Assembly (NCBI GenBank): GCA_003144275.1
Contig: NJBF01000088.1
Coordinates: forward strand, 1-6,815
From: Candidatus Heimdallarchaeota archaeon B3_Heim
GTDB lineage: Archaea; Asgardarchaeota; Heimdallarchaeia; Hodarchaeales; Hodarchaeaceae
Reading direction: 5' to 3'
DNA length: 6,815 bases
Numbering within the stretch: position 1 is the stretch's first letter; every line of letters begins with the position of its first letter. Position numbers and translations under genes: made by a program. The notes below the pieces were generated by a model. That model saw only the letters and a list, made by a program, of their open reading frames with translations. It searched no databases and was not told where the DNA came from. Below are positions 1 through 6,815 of the stretch, piece after piece.

Positions 1-57
1 ATCCTAAGCACTAAATCCTAAACAAATCCAAATTACACAAATTTAAATGTTCAAAAC
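1..57. repeat. Degenerate AAAT/ATCCTAA-rich short-period repeat tract, probably truncated by the window edge
   Basis: ATCCTAA GCACTAA ATCCTAA (1-21, 7-bp period), then ACAAATCC AAATTAC ACAAATTT AAATGTT CAAAAC. Strong strand asymmetry, with only 2 G in 57 nt. Confidence 0.55.
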
Positions 58-172
58 CTTGTCTGGCTTGACAGATAATGCTTTTTGGCGTGTATCTGCT
101 GATACGAAAACGTGCGGTTCTCCGCTAAATCTTTCGCCTGCTGGCGGTTTATGTTAGCCTGCTGGCTAACAT
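53..172 (-). ncRNA. Candidate multi-hairpin small RNA with repeated AGCA tetraloops
   Basis: Lies directly downstream of the minus-strand promoter, with predicted +1 near 172. Minus-strand hairpins: (U)AUGUUAGCC-AGCA-GGCUAACAU(A) (173-150), CGCC-AGCA-GGCG (146-135), GCGG-AGAA-CCGC (125-114), GUAUC-AGCA-GAUAC (105-92) and UGUC-AAGCCA-GACA (73-60), followed by a short U4 tract (56-53). No long ORF. The 3' end is uncertain. Confidence 0.5.
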
Positions 173-178
173 AGGCGT

Positions 179-207
179 ATTATACCATAAAACAGGTTAA
201 ATTTCAA
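179..207 (-). promoter_or_regulatory. Strong sigma70-type promoter with extended -10
   Basis: On the minus strand: -35 TTGAAA (207-202), 17-bp spacer (201-185) ending TGG, and -10 TATAAT (184-179). The -10 is a perfect consensus with the TGn extension. Confidence 0.8.
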
Positions 208-240
208 GACAATTCGTTAAAAATGTCCGAGACACGGCAC

Positions 241-282
241 TTGTATTGAGTATTGCGTATCGCGTGAAGCGTATTGCGTATC
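241..282. repeat. Tandem heptamer repeat, 6 units, consensus GCGTATY
   Basis: TTGTATT GAGTATT GCGTATC GCGTGAA GCGTATT GCGTATC at 241, 248, 255, 262, 269 and 276. Confidence 0.8.
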
Positions 283-300
283 TTTTCGCCCAAAATCTGC

Positions 301-329
301 TTGATTTTCGTTGGCCGGGGTGGTAAGTT
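301..329 (+). promoter_or_regulatory. Sigma70-type promoter for the operon
   Basis: -35 TTGATT (301-306), 17-bp spacer ending TGG, and -10 TAAGTT (324-329) with the TGn extension. It lies about 50 nt upstream of the RBS-preceded ATG at 381. Confidence 0.55.
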
Positions 330-380
330 TAGTTTTTTAAGAGATTTGCATCACGTGGGGTTATTTTAGGAAATAACGTA

Positions 381-536
381 ATGGCGAGGAATAAAGAAAG
401 TAAAGCGAAACTTCCAAGCATAGGAAAAGACGACGATGACGCGATGGTGGCAATCGAAAAGGAAAACCCCATTGTCAAAAGCGTATTGCATAAAGTTATG
501 CTTAAATTACCAATGTTTCTCAGAGATTGTGTATAA
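381..536 (+). CDS. Small 51-aa hypothetical protein (MARNKESKAKLPSIGKDDDDAMVAIEKENPIVKSVLHKVMLKLPMFLRDCV), first gene of the operon
   Basis: AGGA (368-371) lies 9 nt before ATG 381, and the frame is open to TAA 534-536. The stop is separated by one base from the methyltransferase ATG at 538 (TAA C ATG). Not in the supplied ORF track. Confidence 0.6.
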   Translation: MARNKESKAKLPSIGKDDDDAMVAIEKENPIVKSVLHKVMLKLPMFLRDCV

Positions 537-537
537 C

Positions 538-1893
538 ATGCTCGAACACGATAATAAGTTAGATATGCTTATCAAAGAATACGCGAGTGTTCAAAAACCA
601 CTAAGCGTTGATTTCCGGAAAATGGTTCCCGGCCTAAAAGCGGATCGTTACACGCATTTTATCCATCCTTATCCGGCAAAACTTCTTGTACATATCCCTT
701 ATTTCTTTTTGGCAAATACCCTGCTGTCGAAACCCGGCGATACAGTTTTGGATCCATTTTGCGGGTCCGGTACGGTTTTACTCGAGGGTAAGCTTTTAAA
801 AAGAGAAGTTATTGGAGCAGATATAAACCCTATTGCTCGTTTGATATCAAAAGTCAAAATTTTACCTTTATCTGAAAAAAAATTGAGAAATAAATTCGAT
901 TCAATATTAAAAGAGATACCAAACAAATCAAGCCTTGCACCTCCTGATGTAATCAACCTAGATTATTGGTTTTTTCCCCATGTTACGAAACAACTGTTGT
1001 GTATTTTTGAATCGATAAAAAAGCTGGATGACCCTGAAATTAGAGATTTTTTTCTAGTTTGTTTTTCTTGTTGCGCACGAAAAGTGAGTTTGGCTGATCC
1101 AAGATTAACTGTACCGGTTCGTCTTCGAGAAGGCCAATATCCAAAAGGGCACTGGCTTCGGGAACGAACAGACGCTCATTTGCGTAAACTTCGACGAATT
1201 AATGTAATTAAAGCTTTCGAAAATATCGTTGAACAAAATATTCAGCGTATGAGTCTTTTGGAGAAAGTAAATAAAGATTACTCACAACCTATTATTTGTA
1301 ATGATGCTAAAGCTCTAATGACAGGTGATTCCTTCTTTGAGAAAAAAAAGAACACCCTGATTCCTGAGAATAGTGTACAGCTTGTTATTACATCGCCACC
1401 TTATTCAGGGGCGCAAAAATATATTCGTTCGACAAGCCTAAATATAGGCTGGCTCGGCTTCTGTGCAGCATCTGAACTTAGAACTTATAAAAAGGCAACC
1501 ATTGGCAGAGAAGAATATCATAAGGATGAATACGAGAAATATGTCGATACTGGTATTTTGGCGGCTGACAGAATATTGAAAAAGCTTCGAAAAACAAATC
1601 CCCTCCGTTCTCATATTACTTCAAATTATTTGATTGAAATGCAAGAGGCACTGAGAGAAACGGCACGTGTTCTTAAACCTAAGGGGTATCTCCTTTTAGT
1701 AACAGCAAATAATCAAATATGTGGGCACAAATTCCGAACTCCAATATATCTGAGAACTATTGCTGAGAAACTTGGATTTTCTTTGAAACTATGTCTAATT
1801 GACGATATTAAATCGAGAGGTTTGATGACCAAACGGAACAAAACATCAAGTATAATAACAAGAGAATGGGTTATGCTTTTTGAAAAGGCCTAA
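538..1893 (+). CDS. Amino-type DNA methyltransferase, probably N4-cytosine, alpha motif order (about 451 aa)
   Basis: N-terminal THFIHPYPAKL, SAM-binding motif I VLDPFCGSGT, a long intervening region (putative target recognition domain), then catalytic motif IV VITSPPY and later ARVLKPKGY. Start moved from 436 to 538 because 381-536 is occupied by an RBS-preceded ORF that is coupled to ATG 538. Confidence 0.85.
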   Translation: MLEHDNKLDMLIKEYASVQKPLSVDFRKMVPGLKADRYTHFIHPYPAKLLVHIPYFFLANTLLSKPGDTVLDPFCGSGTVLLEGKLLKREVIGADINPIARLISKVKILPLSEKKLRNKFDSILKEIPNKSSLAPPDVINLDYWFFPHVTKQLLCIFESIKKLDDPEIRDFFLVCFSCCARKVSLADPRLTVPVRLREGQYPKGHWLRERTDAHLRKLRRINVIKAFENIVEQNIQRMSLLEKVNKDYSQPIICNDAKALMTGDSFFEKKKNTLIPENSVQLVITSPPYSGAQKYIRSTSLNIGWLGFCAASELRTYKKATIGREEYHKDEYEKYVDTGILAADRILKKLRKTNPLRSHITSNYLIEMQEALRETARVLKPKGYLLLVTANNQICGHKFRTPIYLRTIAEKLGFSLKLCLIDDIKSRGLMTKRNKTSSIITREWVMLFEKA

Positions 1894-1896
1894 AGG

Positions 1897-2859
1897 ATGA
1901 GAGAATTATATCAACAATTAAACAAAAAGATAAAAACTCTAAATGAACTTCTATGGGGACGTAGGATTACAAATCCTGTGGTTGAGCAATGGTTAAACAA
2001 TTTTACTGGAGAACTGCCTGATAGCAAAGAAAAAATTCATGCATTATATATACTCTCTTGTTTTATGTATTTTGGTGATAGAGAAATAAGGGCATTGTTA
2101 AAAACATTGTTTTATGAACTATTTAAATGCCGGATAATATCAGATATCAGAACACGCAACAATGATACGAGTGATTTAGATTTAATTAATAAAGAATTTA
2201 AAAAAGAATTAAAAGCGACAATATTTTTAGGGGTCGGTAACCCTTCAGAGAGTGGTTGCCATCTATTATATTTTTTTCGCCAAGAAAACTCATTAGATAT
2301 AAATCTTTTTGCCAATGACAGTGATATTTTGAAGATTAGCCGAAATAGCAAAGGTGAACCAATTCCAAAACTAAGACACCCAGAAATTAAGAGATATGTA
2401 TACATTGATGATTTCTGTGGTTCTGGCCAACAGATAATAGAATATTTGTATGAAAGGACAAAGTTAATTAAGGAACTTAAATCTGGTGTGGAATTATGTT
2501 ATTATGTTCTCTTTGGTTCTTTAAGTACATTACAAACGATAAAATCTGCTGGGAACTTTGACAGAGTCGATACCGTTTGTGAATTGGGTGCTTCCTATAA
2601 ATGTTTTCAAAGCGATAGATATTTTAAAGAATACGGTGATAAATTAGATAAACATTTTGCAAAAAACATGTGTCAAACTTATGGCGATAAATTATTTCCT
2701 GCGCATCCCTTAGGCTACAAAGGGGGCGAGTTTCTTATTGGTTTTTATCATAATGTGCCAGATAACACACTACCAATAATATGGTCCGAAGGTAATGGGG
2801 ATGACATCAAGTGGCATCCAATATTTAAAAGATATCCTAAAATAAATTTTGAATGGTAA
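1897..2859 (+). CDS. Phosphoribosyltransferase-like protein, 320 aa (conflict-associated PRTase type)
   Basis: PRPP-loop-like motif YVYIDDFCGSGQQ (about 2395-2433; canonical form hhhhDDhhxTGxT). C-terminal PLGY...F.HNVPDNTLPIIW...W.PIFKR block that I associate with conflict-system PRTase-like proteins. Starts 3 nt after the methyltransferase stop, with AAAAGG upstream. Confidence 0.7.
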   Translation: MRELYQQLNKKIKTLNELLWGRRITNPVVEQWLNNFTGELPDSKEKIHALYILSCFMYFGDREIRALLKTLFYELFKCRIISDIRTRNNDTSDLDLINKEFKKELKATIFLGVGNPSESGCHLLYFFRQENSLDINLFANDSDILKISRNSKGEPIPKLRHPEIKRYVYIDDFCGSGQQIIEYLYERTKLIKELKSGVELCYYVLFGSLSTLQTIKSAGNFDRVDTVCELGASYKCFQSDRYFKEYGDKLDKHFAKNMCQTYGDKLFPAHPLGYKGGEFLIGFYHNVPDNTLPIIWSEGNGDDIKWHPIFKRYPKINFEW

Positions 2860-2871
2860 AAGGTTAACTTT

Positions 2872-4866
2872 ATGGAAAATCCTTTTAATATCACAAAAGC
2901 TTTTAATTTCAACGATGAACAGATAAATGACTATTGGGTTGATCTGGGCGACAATGGTTTCCATAAAATTATATCGCCTAGTTCTTCTATGCCTCTTTTA
3001 ATTCTTGGCGGCAAAGGGAGCGGCAAAACACATATTATGCGATATCATTCTTATTATCTGCAAAAAATGAGATGTACCGGCAATTTACTTAATCATCTTT
3101 CAAATGACGGTTATATTGGGATATACTTTACACTTAGCGGATTAGAGGCATCTAGGTTTTTTAATAAAGATAATATTGAAAGCAATTCAAAAGAAAAATT
3201 ACTTGCATTATTTATTTATTACATGGAGCTTTGGATTGCCCAAAAAGCTATAGAGATAATATCTGATATGGCTAAAAGTAGCCCTGATGCCTTCAAAGAA
3301 AAGGAAATATGCAATTCAATTTGTGATTTATTTGATGAGAATCTGAATAATGCCGAAAGCTTCGATGATTTATTTGGCCAATTGAGCAACTTTAAAAAAC
3401 AAGTGGATATTGCATTAAATAACTACTCTTTTACAGCAAGTCTCAATGTTAAAATTAATATTTCTCGTGGCAAGCTGATTTTTGGTATTCCACAAATACT
3501 TGTAGACAAAGTAAAAGAGTTAAAAAAGTGCCGTGTTGTTTATCTTATGGATGAGCTTGAAAACTTGTATCCAATACACCAAAAGTATATTCAGACACTT
3601 TTACGAGAGCAACAACATCCTGTTACTTTTAGAGTCGGTGCTAGGAAATACGGAGTTAAAACATATAGTACTTTTTGTGGGGACGAAGAAAACAAAGCTG
3701 GGGCTGAATATACGCCGATTTATTTAGACAATCTACTGAGAGGAAATGATGGGTATAAAGAGTTTGCAACAAATCTTATTATTAAGAGACTAATAAAGGC
3801 CGGATTTTTTTTGAAAACTGATGTGACGTTAGGGGATTATTTTGAACAATATTCTGAATCTGTAGAAGAATGGATGTTGAAAGTCATCTCAAATAGCAAA
3901 GAGCTAGAGAGAAAATATTTCAAAAAACTGAGGAACAAATTGGAAAAGGCAAAAAAACTTTTTCAGGAGTTTTCTGATAATGATATCCATACGATAATTA
4001 ACGCTTTGAGGATTGACTCTAATCCCTTATTGGAGAAAGTTAACATTCACTTATTCTATATGGCATGGTCGGCATTAGGAAATAACGGAAGTTTAGTCGA
4101 TGAAGCAACAAAAATATCTAAAAGGTGTAAATCGTATCTCCATAATTCAGACAACGATAAAAATTACAAAGAACTTAAAAAGCATTTTAAGCAGGATTTT
4201 ATCGCTCAATTCTGCAGAGAGTATCGACAGCCTGAGCGTGGCTATTTTGATTTGGAAACATACATCCATATGTCGCAGGGACTGCCTCGTAATTTGCTTA
4301 TGATTTTTCAAAAGGTATATGACTGGGCTATTCAAAACGGTGAGAAGCCTTTTATGGAAGGAAAGATTTCAATTAATTCTCAGTCTAATGGGCTTGCTAA
4401 TGCCGCGGATTGGTTTTGGACAGATGCGAGGATTCATGATGGCAAAGACGCAGATAGAATGGAAAGTATTCAGCGATTAGCTGAATTATTTAGAGAAATC
4501 AGATATTCTGATAAACCGGTGGAATGCTCATTATGCACCTTTAGTTTTAATAAAAATGAATGCCCTAGAGAAGTTTTTGAAATTATTGACGGTTCAGAAA
4601 AAGTGTCATTGCTTATAGAGGTCCCTAAAGGACGTCCAGACAAAAACAGTATGAGAGTTGACTTAAGATATCAACTTAATAGCATGTTAGCTACAACGTG
4701 GAAACTACCGATATATAGGCGAGCAGATATAAGGTTATCAAAATCGGAATTAATGGCTATTTTTAAACCAACAAGTGGCCATGATTATTTAGAATGTAAA
4801 AAGAAACGTCTTTCAAAAATGATGGCTCCTTTTAAAGAAAGCGAGCCAACTTTGTTTTGTGATTAA
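2872..4866 (+). CDS. STAND/ORC-CDC6-like P-loop ATPase, 664 aa
   Basis: Walker A GGKGSGKT (3007-3030), Walker B VYLMDELENL (about 3538-3567), downstream FRVGARKYG strand, and a GxP-type helical motif SQGLPRNLL. N-terminal NPF motif. AAGG RBS lies 8 nt upstream. Confidence 0.8.
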   Translation: MENPFNITKAFNFNDEQINDYWVDLGDNGFHKIISPSSSMPLLILGGKGSGKTHIMRYHSYYLQKMRCTGNLLNHLSNDGYIGIYFTLSGLEASRFFNKDNIESNSKEKLLALFIYYMELWIAQKAIEIISDMAKSSPDAFKEKEICNSICDLFDENLNNAESFDDLFGQLSNFKKQVDIALNNYSFTASLNVKINISRGKLIFGIPQILVDKVKELKKCRVVYLMDELENLYPIHQKYIQTLLREQQHPVTFRVGARKYGVKTYSTFCGDEENKAGAEYTPIYLDNLLRGNDGYKEFATNLIIKRLIKAGFFLKTDVTLGDYFEQYSESVEEWMLKVISNSKELERKYFKKLRNKLEKAKKLFQEFSDNDIHTIINALRIDSNPLLEKVNIHLFYMAWSALGNNGSLVDEATKISKRCKSYLHNSDNDKNYKELKKHFKQDFIAQFCREYRQPERGYFDLETYIHMSQGLPRNLLMIFQKVYDWAIQNGEKPFMEGKISINSQSNGLANAADWFWTDARIHDGKDADRMESIQRLAELFREIRYSDKPVECSLCTFSFNKNECPREVFEIIDGSEKVSLLIEVPKGRPDKNSMRVDLRYQLNSMLATTWKLPIYRRADIRLSKSELMAIFKPTSGHDYLECKKKRLSKMMAPFKESEPTLFCD

Positions 4867-4868
4867 AA

Positions 4869-5810
4869 ATGATAGATTATTCGATTTATTACAGAGAAAA
4901 ACATAGTACCTTGGAATCGTTGTCTGATTTTTACCAGTGGGACTACTATGTTTCTGCATTTAGATCCGATGAGAGAGTAGAAAGGCTTTTCGCTAATATT
5001 AATGCTCATAGAAAAGATTGGCTGATTTTCCCCGAATATAAATATAGCAAAGATGAATATCCGAAAACAAAAACAGAAGAGGATGTAATTGAATTGTCGG
5101 GCAAAACGGAAAGTGAAATTATTAATCCATATGTAAAAAAGTTGATGGCGGATATTAAGGACAAAACTATCTGTATTGACATTACAGGTTTCATCCGTCC
5201 TCATTTAATGTGTTTTCTCAAGTGTTTAAAACGAGAAGGTATCAATAAATTTGACATAATATATGTCGAGCCCGGATGGTATATAAAACGCGAACTTACA
5301 AAATTTTCATATAAGGTTTTAGATGTTAGATTGGTGCATGGTTATGAGGGAATTCAAAAGTTGGATAATAAGGATGATTTACTGATTATTGGCTCAGGCT
5401 ATGATGACCAATTGATTGCAGCCGTTGCAAATAAAAAATCGTCCGTAAGAAATAAAATACAAATTTTTGGTTTGCCAGCCCTTAGTCCTGCATTTTACCA
5501 GGAAAACCGACTTTGTGCTCATAAGGCTGAAGATGTCAAAGATGGAGAGTCTTATTTTGCTCCGGCATATGACCCATTCGCAACAGCAGAAACGATAAGT
5601 AGTATTGTTAAGCAAAAAAAACCAACAAATTTATATCTATGCCCTTTAGCGACAAAACCGCAAGTATTAGGTTTTGCTTTATATTATCTTTTAGAAAGAG
5701 AAAATACTGCCACGAGTATTATTCATCCATTTTATGAATCTTACTCAAAAGAAACTTCTGAGAAGATAGGACGCATATGGAAGTATAGAATTGAATTTCC
5801 TAAAGTGTAA
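4869..5810 (+). CDS. Hypothetical protein, 313 aa, probable tandem alpha/beta (Rossmannoid, possibly CARF-like) domains
   Basis: Starts 2 nt after the ATPase stop. It has two similar beta-alpha-beta units: ICIDITGFIRPHLMCFLKCL...FDIIY and LLIIGSGYD...LYLCPLATKPQVLGFALYY...SIIH. The CDS is secure; the fold call is inference. Confidence 0.75.
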   Translation: MIDYSIYYREKHSTLESLSDFYQWDYYVSAFRSDERVERLFANINAHRKDWLIFPEYKYSKDEYPKTKTEEDVIELSGKTESEIINPYVKKLMADIKDKTICIDITGFIRPHLMCFLKCLKREGINKFDIIYVEPGWYIKRELTKFSYKVLDVRLVHGYEGIQKLDNKDDLLIIGSGYDDQLIAAVANKKSSVRNKIQIFGLPALSPAFYQENRLCAHKAEDVKDGESYFAPAYDPFATAETISSIVKQKKPTNLYLCPLATKPQVLGFALYYLLERENTATSIIHPFYESYSKETSEKIGRIWKYRIEFPKV

Positions 5811-5845: not shown

Positions 5846-6469
5846 TTATATTTTGGACGATATCGCATTAAGGTTATCGATACACAATTGTGACCAGGTT
5901 TCCATTTTATCTCTCACATCTTTGAGGTCATCAATTTTTATGAATCGAAGTTTACAAATCTCCTGTTCTCGACTTTTTACATTTGGCTTTGCTAATCGCC
6001 AAAGATGAATTATCCCAAAGTGTACTCGGCCTACCTCGTTAGAATCATCATTAATAAGACCTACAATCTTGTCGTCGTGTTCAGTTTCAACAATAACTTC
6101 TTCTTCTACCTCTCGCGCAAGAGCATTGAGATATACTTCTTTGATATTTTTACTGGAAACCGAAATTCTATCAGAAGGATTAATATGGCCCCCAATTCCT
6201 ATTGAAGCCTTTTGAGCCAGACGTTTTTCATCGACTCCTATACCTCTGATATAGCAAAGATATGTGTCTTCATAGGCCATAATTACATAGGGAATTAATT
6301 GCTTGTATGCTGGATTCTTCTCGGCCTCCGGTCGAGCCATAAAGCTCACCCCGTTACCCTTCCACAGCTCACCTAAGTAACGATCAACATTAAAGCTGAC
6401 CCCTTGACATAAACCGAGCCCCTCGAGAATATGTCGTTCTATAACAAGAACTTTTTCAATTTTTCCCAT
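5846..6469 (-). CDS. NUDIX (MutT-family) hydrolase / predicted phosphoesterase, about 207 aa
   Basis: YKQLIPYV, EKRL..KASIGIGGHINPSD, a NUDIX box with insertion ending AREVEEEV, and GLINDDSNEVGRVHFG, a pattern I recognise as the COG4112-like NUDIX subgroup. Preferred start is ATG 6469 (GGAAG 8 nt upstream); ATG 6484 is an alternative. Confidence 0.8.
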   Translation of the reverse strand: MGKIEKVLVIERHILEGLGLCQGVSFNVDRYLGELWKGNGVSFMARPEAEKNPAYKQLIPYVIMAYEDTYLCYIRGIGVDEKRLAQKASIGIGGHINPSDRISVSSKNIKEVYLNALAREVEEEVIVETEHDDKIVGLINDDSNEVGRVHFGIIHLWRLAKPNVKSREQEICKLRFIKIDDLKDVRDKMETWSQLCIDNLNAISSKI

Positions 6470-6562
6470 AGGGATTACTTCCATGAATCCATTTTCAGCA
6501 CACCATTCCTTTGCGCCCGACACAAGTTCTCTCACCTTAGCCAGGATCAAATCCAATCCTAA

Positions 6563-6591: not shown

Positions 6592-6642
6592 TGCTACTTA
6601 ATTCTCAGCGCCCTCCGCGACTGTCCTTTGCTTAGGGCTTTA

Positions 6643-6659
6643 ATCCACCTGAGGCGGAT
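6643..6659. repeat. Short REP-like palindrome
   Basis: ATCCACC-TGA-GGCGGAT. On the minus strand it reads ATCCGCC-TCA-GGTGGAT, a 7-bp stem with one G.T pair. Confidence 0.5.
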
Positions 6660-6687
6660 AAATATCAAGAAACAGTTAAGTCGAAGA

Positions 6688-6710: not shown

Positions 6711-6745
6711 TTTTCATCCCTCGTCTTTCGTCCCTCGTCTCTCGT
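6711..6745. repeat. Tandem heptamer repeat, 4-5 units, consensus CYYTCGT
   Basis: TTTTCAT CCCTCGT CTTTCGT CCCTCGT CTCTCGT at 6711, 6718, 6725, 6732 and 6739. Confidence 0.8.
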
Positions 6746-6815
6746 ATCGCCCGATAACCAAAGCATTTGTAGTAAAACTGTTAAACTCCGAGGTCAAAAA
6801 GGTCGATTTTCTTCC

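Follow-up and report, generated by a model that had tools for sequence, protein, structure and literature searches.

A sigma-70-Type Promoter and a Probable, Conserved Four-Hairpin Leader in an Apparently Undescribed Intergenic Element Family

A Promoter and Probable Leader in a Multicopy Element

The subject of this study is a short non-coding segment at positions 53-207 (minus strand) of contig NJBF01000088.1, from the metagenome-assembled genome (MAG) Candidatus Heimdallarchaeota archaeon B3_Heim. The complete contig of 6,815 bp (label C12), hereafter called the window, is one of 103 contigs in this MAG of 36% G+C. We consider it likely that the segment comprises the promoter and the 5' structured leader of one copy of a multicopy composite intergenic element, with the leader acting in cis. 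The element occurs in many copies, is modular in its build, keeps its hairpins at a fixed position behind the promoter with conserved pairing, is linked to a downstream array of small reading frames, and occurs independently of its neighbors. It is real and structured, and apparently undescribed; for instance, literature searches on planctomycete repeats turned up nothing specific to this leader-array family.

The proposed unit would have four parts. It would open with a strong sigma-70-type promoter with an extended -10, followed by a leader of about 95 nt with the hairpins H1-H4, beginning at or a few nucleotides from the start site. The third part would be a variable low-complexity spacer of 140-400 nt, and the fourth a conserved block (CTCTACAAATC...ATGCAAAACAAACCCAAT) plus 1-5 modules of about 90 nt that contain mini open reading frames (mini-ORFs) of 25 codons. 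The leader would act in cis on its own transcript and not in trans as a sponge or antitoxin. Possibly, its 5'-terminal stem protects the transcript from 5'-end-dependent decay, and the invariant H3-H4 segment could be the site for a processing or binding factor.

Promoter and Hairpins in the Window

A consensus scan scored the promoter at 207-179 (minus strand, Table 1) at 11 out of 12, with the TG present, as the sole strong site within positions 1-600. This bears out the consensus promoter (TTGAAA-17-TGG-TATAAT) claimed in a preliminary description of the window, which was also right about the perfect 10-bp stem at 150-173 (our H1) and about the extension of H4 through a UUUC bulge, where CGU at 112-110 pairs with ACG at 91-89 and lengthens the hairpin to 112-89. 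The minimum free energy fold of 175-40 returned H1-H3 at -39.5 kcal/mol, compared to -22.9 +/- 3.3 for shuffled sequences (z = -5.0; none of the 200 shuffles was equally good). The fold energy lies 5 standard deviations below the shuffles, and therefore the observation of a promoter with hairpins is correct; it is real and beyond chance.

Five consecutive hairpins had been described. Four of these stand, as the fold returned H1-H3 and RNAalifold on 23 related copies independently predicted H1-H4, but the fifth is weak and not conserved. The structure of H5 is lost in copies of the L020/L055/L060 type, and other modules replace it in many copies. Because H5 has only 4 bp and is not kept in more distant copies, the four hairpins form the solid unit.

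Covariance models of Rfam 15 gave no match in window positions 1-300, even at E <= 10, and Rfam models gave none at the gathering score in 15 related loci. Homologues keep both the promoter and the hairpins. The earlier view of an undescribed, structured and promoter-driven non-coding element is thereby upheld.

Table 1. Features annotated in the window (positions in nucleotides from its first letter).
Feature	Position	Strand	Basis and remarks
-35 hexamer TTGAAA, "type A" promoter module	207-202	minus	Direct reading and consensus scan; kept in 17 related loci
Extended -10, TGG-TATAAT	187-179	minus	17-nt spacer to -35; direct reading and consensus scan
Predicted transcription start	172	minus	7 nt past -10, base of H1; from the spacing rule only
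Hairpin H1, UAUGUUAGCC-AGCA-GGCUAACAUA, 10 bp	173-164 / loop 163-160 / 159-150	minus	Reading and fold
Hairpin H2, CGCC-AGCA-GGCG	146-143 / AGCA / 138-135	minus	Reading and fold
Hairpin H3, GCGG-AGAA-CCGC, nearly invariant core	125-122 / AGAA / 117-114	minus	Reading and fold
Hairpin H4, GUAUC-AGCA-GAUAC	105-101 / loop 100-97 / 96-92	minus	Direct reading
Weak hairpin H5, UGUC-AAGCCA-GACA, then UUUU (56-53)	73-70 / loop / 63-60	minus	Direct reading
Start of low-complexity spacer, GGATTT-type short repeats	1-52	minus	Ends at contig end; near-identical to L010, L011, L018
Block upstream of -35, GTGCCGTGTCTCGGACATTTTT	208-240	minus	Accompanies the type A promoter; conserved at 16 of the 17 type A loci
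GTATTGCGTATC short repeats	250-261, 271-282, partial 243-250		Direct reading
Block E/F, TTGATT-17-TAAGTT promoter-like site and leader ...GCATCACGTGGGGTTATTTTAGGAAAT..CGTAATGGCG	296-390	plus	Heads the plus-strand operon
Operon: N6/N4 DNA methyltransferase, PRTase-CE, ORC/Cdc6-like ATPase, CARF6-like protein	436-5810	plus	Pfam, PADLOC
Convergent, weakly NUDIX-like gene	5846-6556	minus	Follows the operon

Copy Number and Distribution

A BLAST search with window positions 1-330 found no further copy in the window's own assembly, and 1 of 60 related genomes matched. This genome (G018) is a genus-mate MAG titled Candidatus Hodarchaeota archaeon, in which a 4.6-kb contig (C257) begins inside the same element. 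Its copy has the promoter and several upstream blocks in common with the window, but another downstream gene and other stems at two of the hairpin positions.

An exact 20-mer over the spacer and the -10 matched 26 loci in a species-representative collection, 17 of which were true relatives. Nearly all of these come from MAGs whose titles name Sedimentisphaerales, Pirellulales or Phycisphaerae, and a single genome holds several. The identical 20-mer was present at six loci in one MAG and at three loci in each of two others, next to different neighbors, which is the pattern of a reused promoter. With the hairpins alone (53-176) as BLAST query, we found at least 40 copies, with 41-42 matches scored, in each of four Planctomycetota MAGs of 5.2-6.8 Mb and 14 copies in a fifth of 1.9 Mb. 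These leader-rich genomes (G061-G065) are Sedimentisphaerales-type MAGs. The leader family was detected in 13 of the 201 sampled genomes of the order titled Sedimentisphaerales and in none of 300 other genomes sampled across the phylum, and it appears confined to a subset of this one planctomycete order, with tens of copies per genome. The H3-H4 core was found on at least 120 metagenome contigs, with no match on viral contigs, and look-ups of sequencing runs for the leader indicated marine sediment metagenomes.

The genes beside the leader copies vary, and include groEL, a Thi4-like gene, secreted proteins and sulfatases. In about 20 loci the first real gene downstream points the same way as the leader, and in about 14 it is convergent. 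Given this mixed orientation, the unit is self-contained and not a leader built for one gene.

Fixed Position and Conserved Pairing of the Leader

Nearly all hairpin arrays in 30 fetched copies begin a few nucleotides past a TG-preceded TATAAT or TAAAAT box. At least three unrelated -35/spacer modules precede the leader in these copies, and a TGnTAWAAT-type -10 box is common to all three promoter module types. H1 begins 5-8 nt past the -10 in 23 canonical copies, that is, at the expected +1. In line with this, 68 of the 75 independent metagenomic copies have a TAWAAT box, 66 with a -35 as well, and the modal distance to H3 is 53 nt. The order and orientation of H1-H4 behind the -10 box are fixed in about 90% of the copies.

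In a covariance-model alignment of 61 copies, 93.8% of the cells pair and double changes occur at 23 of the 25 pairs. The covariation score was 0.193, compared to 0.070 after shuffling (0 of 500 shuffles as high) and 0.013-0.044 in slid controls. For instance, the H1 position is occupied by GTTAGCC/GGCTAAC, GTTTGCC/GGCAAAC, GTTTACC/GGTAAAC, CCTTGTACT/AGTACAGGG, or an AT-rich hairpin (ATATGATATA-G-TATATCATAT), and the H2 position by CGCC/GGCG, CCGCC/GGCGG, CCCGC/GCGGG, GCCAU/AUGGC or GCCGCG/CGCGGC, with many loops. The loops of H1 and H2 drift (AGCA, AGAA, AGUA, CGUA, GGCA, CGAC, CAAC, CAGGA and others) while the stems are kept. The stem pairs of H3 are G-C or C-G in 54-59 of the 61 copies, and its loop is AGAA in at least 45. 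H4 is the most conserved piece of the family; its loop is AGCA in 51 of the 61 copies, and its core GTATCAGCAGATACACGC is unchanged in the majority of the divergent copies, down to about 78% overall identity. Inserts of 19-50 nt inside loops, those of 25-50 nt within the H3 loop, leave the stems intact.

These patterns do not favor selection on loop display, as the preliminary description had proposed, since the H1 and H2 loops drift on persistent stems and H3 and H4 are invariant in their stems too. Its expectation of covariation and loop conservation in homologues held in part: compensatory changes occur in H1 and H2 and the loops of H3 and H4 are kept, but those of H1 and H2 are not. A structure that appears to be kept by compensatory change, at a fixed distance from the predicted start, is what is expected of a transcript leader.

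Several loci (L035, L038, L045, L055, L060, L081, L083) carry small GC-rich hairpins that are inserted in a loop of H1, H2 or H3 and do not disrupt its stem. The inserted modules include GCCCC-TTA-GGGGC, CTTGTCCGCC...GGCGGA and GTCC-GTAA-GGAC. At L019:4319-4401, a deletion fuses H1 to H2 exactly between shared CCAGCAGGC copies, which suggests slippage or recombination between the hairpins.

An alternative explanation is that the family is a DNA-level repeat, of the repetitive extragenic palindrome/bacterial interspersed mosaic element (REP/BIME), BOX, or miniature inverted-repeat transposable element (MITE) type. Its hairpins would then serve transposition or recombination, the promoter would be incidental cargo and the RNA structure a by-product. 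Copy numbers in the tens per genome, mosaic combinations, the exact junction in L019 and the hairpins inserted in the loops of other hairpins all suit such a repeat, as do the other repeat modules of the same genomes at both window ends. Uncompensated mismatches in close copies resemble neutral decay, and the strand bias of G-U over A-C is weak. The leader copies are short palindromes at high copy number, all of them intergenic, and they share with the MITE/Correia class that they are dispersed, multicopy, non-autonomous and promoter-carrying. The preliminary description had itself set dispersed, genome-wide REP-like copies against its RNA reading; these exist in the five leader-rich planctomycetes, but not in the window's own bin, where the copy is single, so that a "REP of this genome" fails for the bin and holds for the planctomycete genomes. 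However, the fixed order and orientation of H1-H4 relative to the promoter are unlike REP/BIME clusters, and a hairpin begins at the predicted +1. Moreover, no transposase or RAYT gene adjoins any copy examined, although no genome-wide RAYT search was done in G061-G065. No terminal inverted repeat or target-site duplication was noticed in the flank alignments, which were not searched systematically, had undefined boundaries and were not compared with empty sites. We therefore regard a purely DNA-level role as unlikely, though it is the strongest of the alternatives.

Downstream Array and RNA-Library Contigs

The sequence 3' of H4 is variable, H5 being one of several alternatives. A heptamer-like low-complexity spacer of 140-400 nt comes after the leader and is followed by a conserved block (CTCTACAAATC...TTTATGCAAAACAAACCCAAT); the block, also given as CTCTACAAATC...ATGCAAAACAAACCCAAT, opens an array of 1-5 tandem modules of about 90 nt each. 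Every module consists of ATGAAYGTAAA, 74 nt and then AAACAAACCCAAT, and holds a 25-codon mini-ORF with the consensus MNVNSLITKDYEN...NKPN (L010:300-1100 and about 70 other loci, outside the window). The modules are separated by 10-13-nt CAAACCCAAT repeats, which shift the frame from one module to the next. Among copies with at least 700 nt downstream, the leader is followed by an NKPN-type array in all 30 from genomes and in 43 of 45 from metagenomes.

Of 54 modules, 53 keep the 25-codon frame open, and the other frames are mostly closed. The mini-ORFs show no third-position excess, and with a ratio of synonymous to non-synonymous changes of 131:485 purifying selection on the residues is undetectable. 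Therefore, the frame and not the peptide sequence looks constrained. The 116-aa read-through product matched nothing in Pfam, NCBIfam or the ESM Atlas. The window's copy ends 52 nt past the weak H5, and its last 60 nt match L010, L011 and L018, which lead into the conserved block and the mini-ORF array; thus, the window's unit is cut by the contig end.

Contigs assembled from four sediment metatranscriptome runs (three studies) cover positions 73-190 at high summed depth, and several of them bridge H4, H5 and 14-60. Positions 193-288 are without cover by RNA-library contigs in three runs. We do not take this gap and the differences in depth as a transcription start, as contigs show neither strand nor ends. 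The RNA-library contigs are consistent with transcription and with read-through past H5, and prove neither.

The preliminary description had proposed a transcript of 110-120 nt. Such a stand-alone, multicopy small RNA (sRNA) of about 100-120 nt would terminate at H4/H5 or shortly beyond and work in trans, for instance by protein binding via H3-H4. It would account for the strong promoter, for the compact and conserved four-hairpin structure, for the invariant H3-H4 sequence, as a binding site would be, and for the UUUU after H5 in the window's subtype. The summed RNA-library depth over 73-190 is also high relative to both flanks, but this profile is confounded by differing copy numbers of the modules. 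The 3' end, however, does not fit an sRNA. The minus strand showed no terminator-like site, and H5 with its UUUU was not scored as one; we rejected it as a terminator, since it has a stem of 4 bp, is lost in other subtypes and often gives way to other modules. The sequence past H4 is variable, RNA-library contigs span H5 and the U run, and the leader is linked to the downstream array in nearly every copy counted. The stand-alone transcript is hence improbable.

A related and similarly improbable possibility is that H3-H4 (GCGG-AGAA-CCGC ... GUAUC-AGCA-GAUAC), with which tens of transcription units per genome would begin, is recognized by an RNase or RNA-binding protein dedicated to it. These units would then constitute a lineage-specific post-transcriptional regulon that controls the arrays of 25-residue peptides, which diverge fast.

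Several points weigh against a cis-acting promoter-leader unit, even though we favor it. That the leader protects the transcript or binds a factor is purely conjectural, and its transcription start and strand are predictions from the sequence. The RNA evidence consists only of contigs summed over paralogues; some of these run into other promoter modules, and DNA carry-over or read-through is possible. If a second promoter lies in the conserved CTCTACA block, which is possible, leader and array would be separate transcripts. The covariation alignment was fitted to the model, so that unrelated hairpins were laid on the same stems. Close copies are nearly without covariation, with one true double change in 28 sequences, but they provide no test because their divergence is too small. 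Finally, G-U versus A-C mismatches favor the sense strand by only 42:23, and a single pair contributes 17 of the G-U cells.

Neighboring Genes and Block E/F

The leader of the window is divergent from a four-gene operon, a predicted defence system whose protein families include PRTase-CE (PF24390), an ORC-CDC6-like ATPase (PF24389) and a CARF6-like protein (PADLOC PDLC01914, E = 3e-101). Nothing specific was found in the experimental literature on a PRTase-CE / ORC-Cdc6 / CARF6 system. Upstream of the operon lies block E/F (Table 1), which is kept in G018 and in 11 of the 17 type A loci. Its copies number 7-11 in each of G061-G063 and one each in G064 and G065, with a consensus of TTGATT-17-TAAkTT across loci that include L009, L017, L024, L028 and L093-L104.

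Block E/F heads genes of the restriction-modification or defence type in at least 16 of about 19 loci. Its cargo comprises methyltransferases, Eco57I/MmeI-type enzymes, PLD nucleases and a helicase-PLD fusion, and further a McrB-like AAA_5 ATPase, REase-ARP, and PRTase-CE fused to a STAND NTPase. The conserved leader of block E/F contains CACGTG. The block may serve defence genes as a common control region or as the point at which they are exchanged.

Within 381-538, a 51-codon ORF starts from the conserved ATGGCG of block E/F and has its stop at 534-536, 1 nt before the ATG at 538, which lies in frame in the methyltransferase ORF. This short ORF may encode a coupled leader peptide. At other loci, however, the ORFs that begin with the conserved ATGGCG differ greatly in length, and ATGGCG is perhaps not a start codon. 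The GTATTGCGTATC-type repeats (243-282) sit between the two divergent promoters and differ in copy number among loci, with three in G018, for example. Runs of CGTATTG / ATACGCA heptamers, of variable length, recur across related loci on both sides of the leader.

The preliminary description had suggested that the RNA is a sponge or antitoxin paired with the divergent operon. An RNA partner of this operon, be it sponge, antitoxin or regulator, would agree with the adjacent, divergent arrangement, and in the 11 type A loci mentioned above the promoter likewise lies beside restriction-modification or defence cargo headed by block E/F. The distribution of the leader, however, brings this explanation close to refuted. 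Block E/F lies within 900 nt of the leader in only 3 of 68 metagenomic copies, and there are copies of the block that lack the leader. Conversely, unrelated cargo is found beside this same leader (methyltransferases, PLD-helicase, Eco57I/MmeI-type enzymes, DUF429) as well as ordinary genes, and the window's operon was not found in the five leader-rich genomes. Direct repeats of the ToxI kind and GGA loops are also lacking. A dedicated partnership is highly improbable; the adjacency of leader and operon in the window is a mosaic arrangement.

Two further candidates were rejected. A retron msr/msd, an IS110 bridge RNA, an IscB/TnpB omega RNA or an integron attC site is contradicted by the absence of a reverse transcriptase, recombinase or transposase beside any copy examined; retron-type PRTase matches in PADLOC concerned the divergent operon only. 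The CAGCAG sequence as methylation or restriction motif of the adjacent methyltransferase does not agree with H1/H2 loops that vary freely in relatives.

Three genomes (L009, L011, L021) share the site of the leader unit as well as the convergent sulfatase-like gene downstream of it. The upstream cargo differs and includes a methyltransferase pair, a PilZ-PRTase-CE-STAND protein, and other genes. The orthologous position thus has the look of a defence hotspot.

Origin of the Contig

Both non-coding ends of the window are repeat modules of the leader-rich planctomycete genomes. The tetranucleotide usage of the contig ranks 95th of the 103 contigs in the bin, among the most atypical, and its G+C content fits the bin. 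Because of these repeat modules and the atypical tetranucleotide usage, the contig is quite probably planctomycete DNA that was mis-binned into an archaeal MAG, and the 4.6-kb contig of the genus mate (G018:C257) is probably mis-binned bacterial DNA likewise.

Positions 6634-6680 and 6738-6814 are further repeat modules, common to G061, G062, G063 and G065. The sequence GGGCTTTAATCC(A/G)CCTGAGGCGGATAAATATCAAGAAACAGTTAAG is also present at the far end of the cargo in G061:C178. With conserved modules at both window ends, the cargo is therefore bracketed on both sides.

Implications

To read the window's MAG as archaeal throughout would mislead, as the contig is probably bacterial DNA in an Asgard-archaeal bin. 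Nor does a promoter with a hairpin array have to be a dedicated regulator because it stands beside a defence operon; the one described here belongs to a repeat family. This family is abundant in marine sediment metagenomes, has an RNA-type structure at its predicted 5' end and leads to arrays of 25-codon frames. If the leader stabilizes or marks transcripts, it would offer a ready-made expression module of uncultured Planctomycetota and a handle on the role of the peptide arrays. The position of block E/F at the head of many unrelated defence cassettes suggests a shared control or exchange mechanism in these bacteria.

Comparison with Known Systems

Like the sponge RNAs CsrB and RsmZ, the leader has a run of short hairpins behind a strong promoter. 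The preliminary description rightly held that it is not a canonical member of this group. Its loops (AGCA, AGCA, AGAA, AGCA, AAGCCA) differ from those of CsrB, RsmY and RsmZ in that none contains GGA, and Rfam gave no match; the sole GGA, in GCGGAGAA, has both G residues inside the H3 stem. Furthermore, the leader has no terminator, its H1 and H2 loops are not conserved, it occurs in tens of copies per genome, and it runs into an ORF array. It also differs from ToxI-like antitoxins of type III, as it has four different hairpins instead of tandem direct repeats, is divergent from the operon and occurs without it.

Enterobacterial REPs occur in alternating orientations, mostly at the 3' ends of genes, are promoterless and are linked to RAYT transposases. 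The leader family resembles REPs and BIMEs in its short imperfect palindromes, mosaic build, high copy number and extragenic location. In contrast to their alternating orientations, however, H1-H4 have a fixed order and orientation 5-8 nt behind the -10, and the other REP traits named above were likewise not seen in the copies examined.

A stable hairpin within 0-2 nt of the 5' end of a transcript protects it against 5'-end-dependent decay. The ompA 5' untranslated region (UTR), in the 1992 work of Emory, Bouvet and Belasco, reportedly has a 5'-terminal stem-loop of this stabilizing kind. The leader similarly has a stable hairpin at the very 5' end of its transcript, if the predicted start is correct. 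The ompA-type stabilizer is a single hairpin in the UTR of one gene, whereas the leader has four hairpins in tens of units, and its stabilizing effect is putative.

The BOX elements of Streptococcus pneumoniae are modular intergenic repeats of the composition boxA-boxB(n)-boxC, which are transcribed together with neighboring genes (PMC3049150). Like the leader family, they are multicopy and lineage-restricted, with few cassette types and stable predicted hairpins (PMC3049150). In contrast to the leader family, BOX elements have no own promoter at a fixed position and no mini-ORF array, follow another module logic and lack sequence similarity to it.

Correia repeat enclosed elements (CREEs) of Neisseria are small dispersed repeats that can provide adjacent genes with promoters (PMC2649163), and other promoter-bearing MITEs have been described (PMC2229807, PMC10969869). 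The likeness lies in the supply of promoters by dispersed repeats, and the transcribed hairpins of these elements are RNase substrates or shields. CREEs, however, have terminal inverted repeats with a TA duplication, and their promoters are created at the element ends. The leader family has a complete consensus promoter inside the unit, followed by four distinct hairpins in fixed order; inverted termini were not seen in its flank alignments, which were not searched systematically for them.

Reused or "mobile" promoters, in which near-identical promoters precede non-homologous genes in one genome and are common to several genomes (PMC3575422), are a further parallel. This concept covers promoters only, whereas the leader family adds a conserved structured leader and a peptide-array payload. 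Moreover, a convergent gene lies opposite about 40% of the leader copies, and therefore the unit does more than donate a promoter. Its nearest known counterparts are the promoter-bearing, hairpin-rich dispersed repeats (BOX, Correia, BIMEs) together with the reused promoters, and it is the fixed architecture of promoter, leader and array that sets this family apart.

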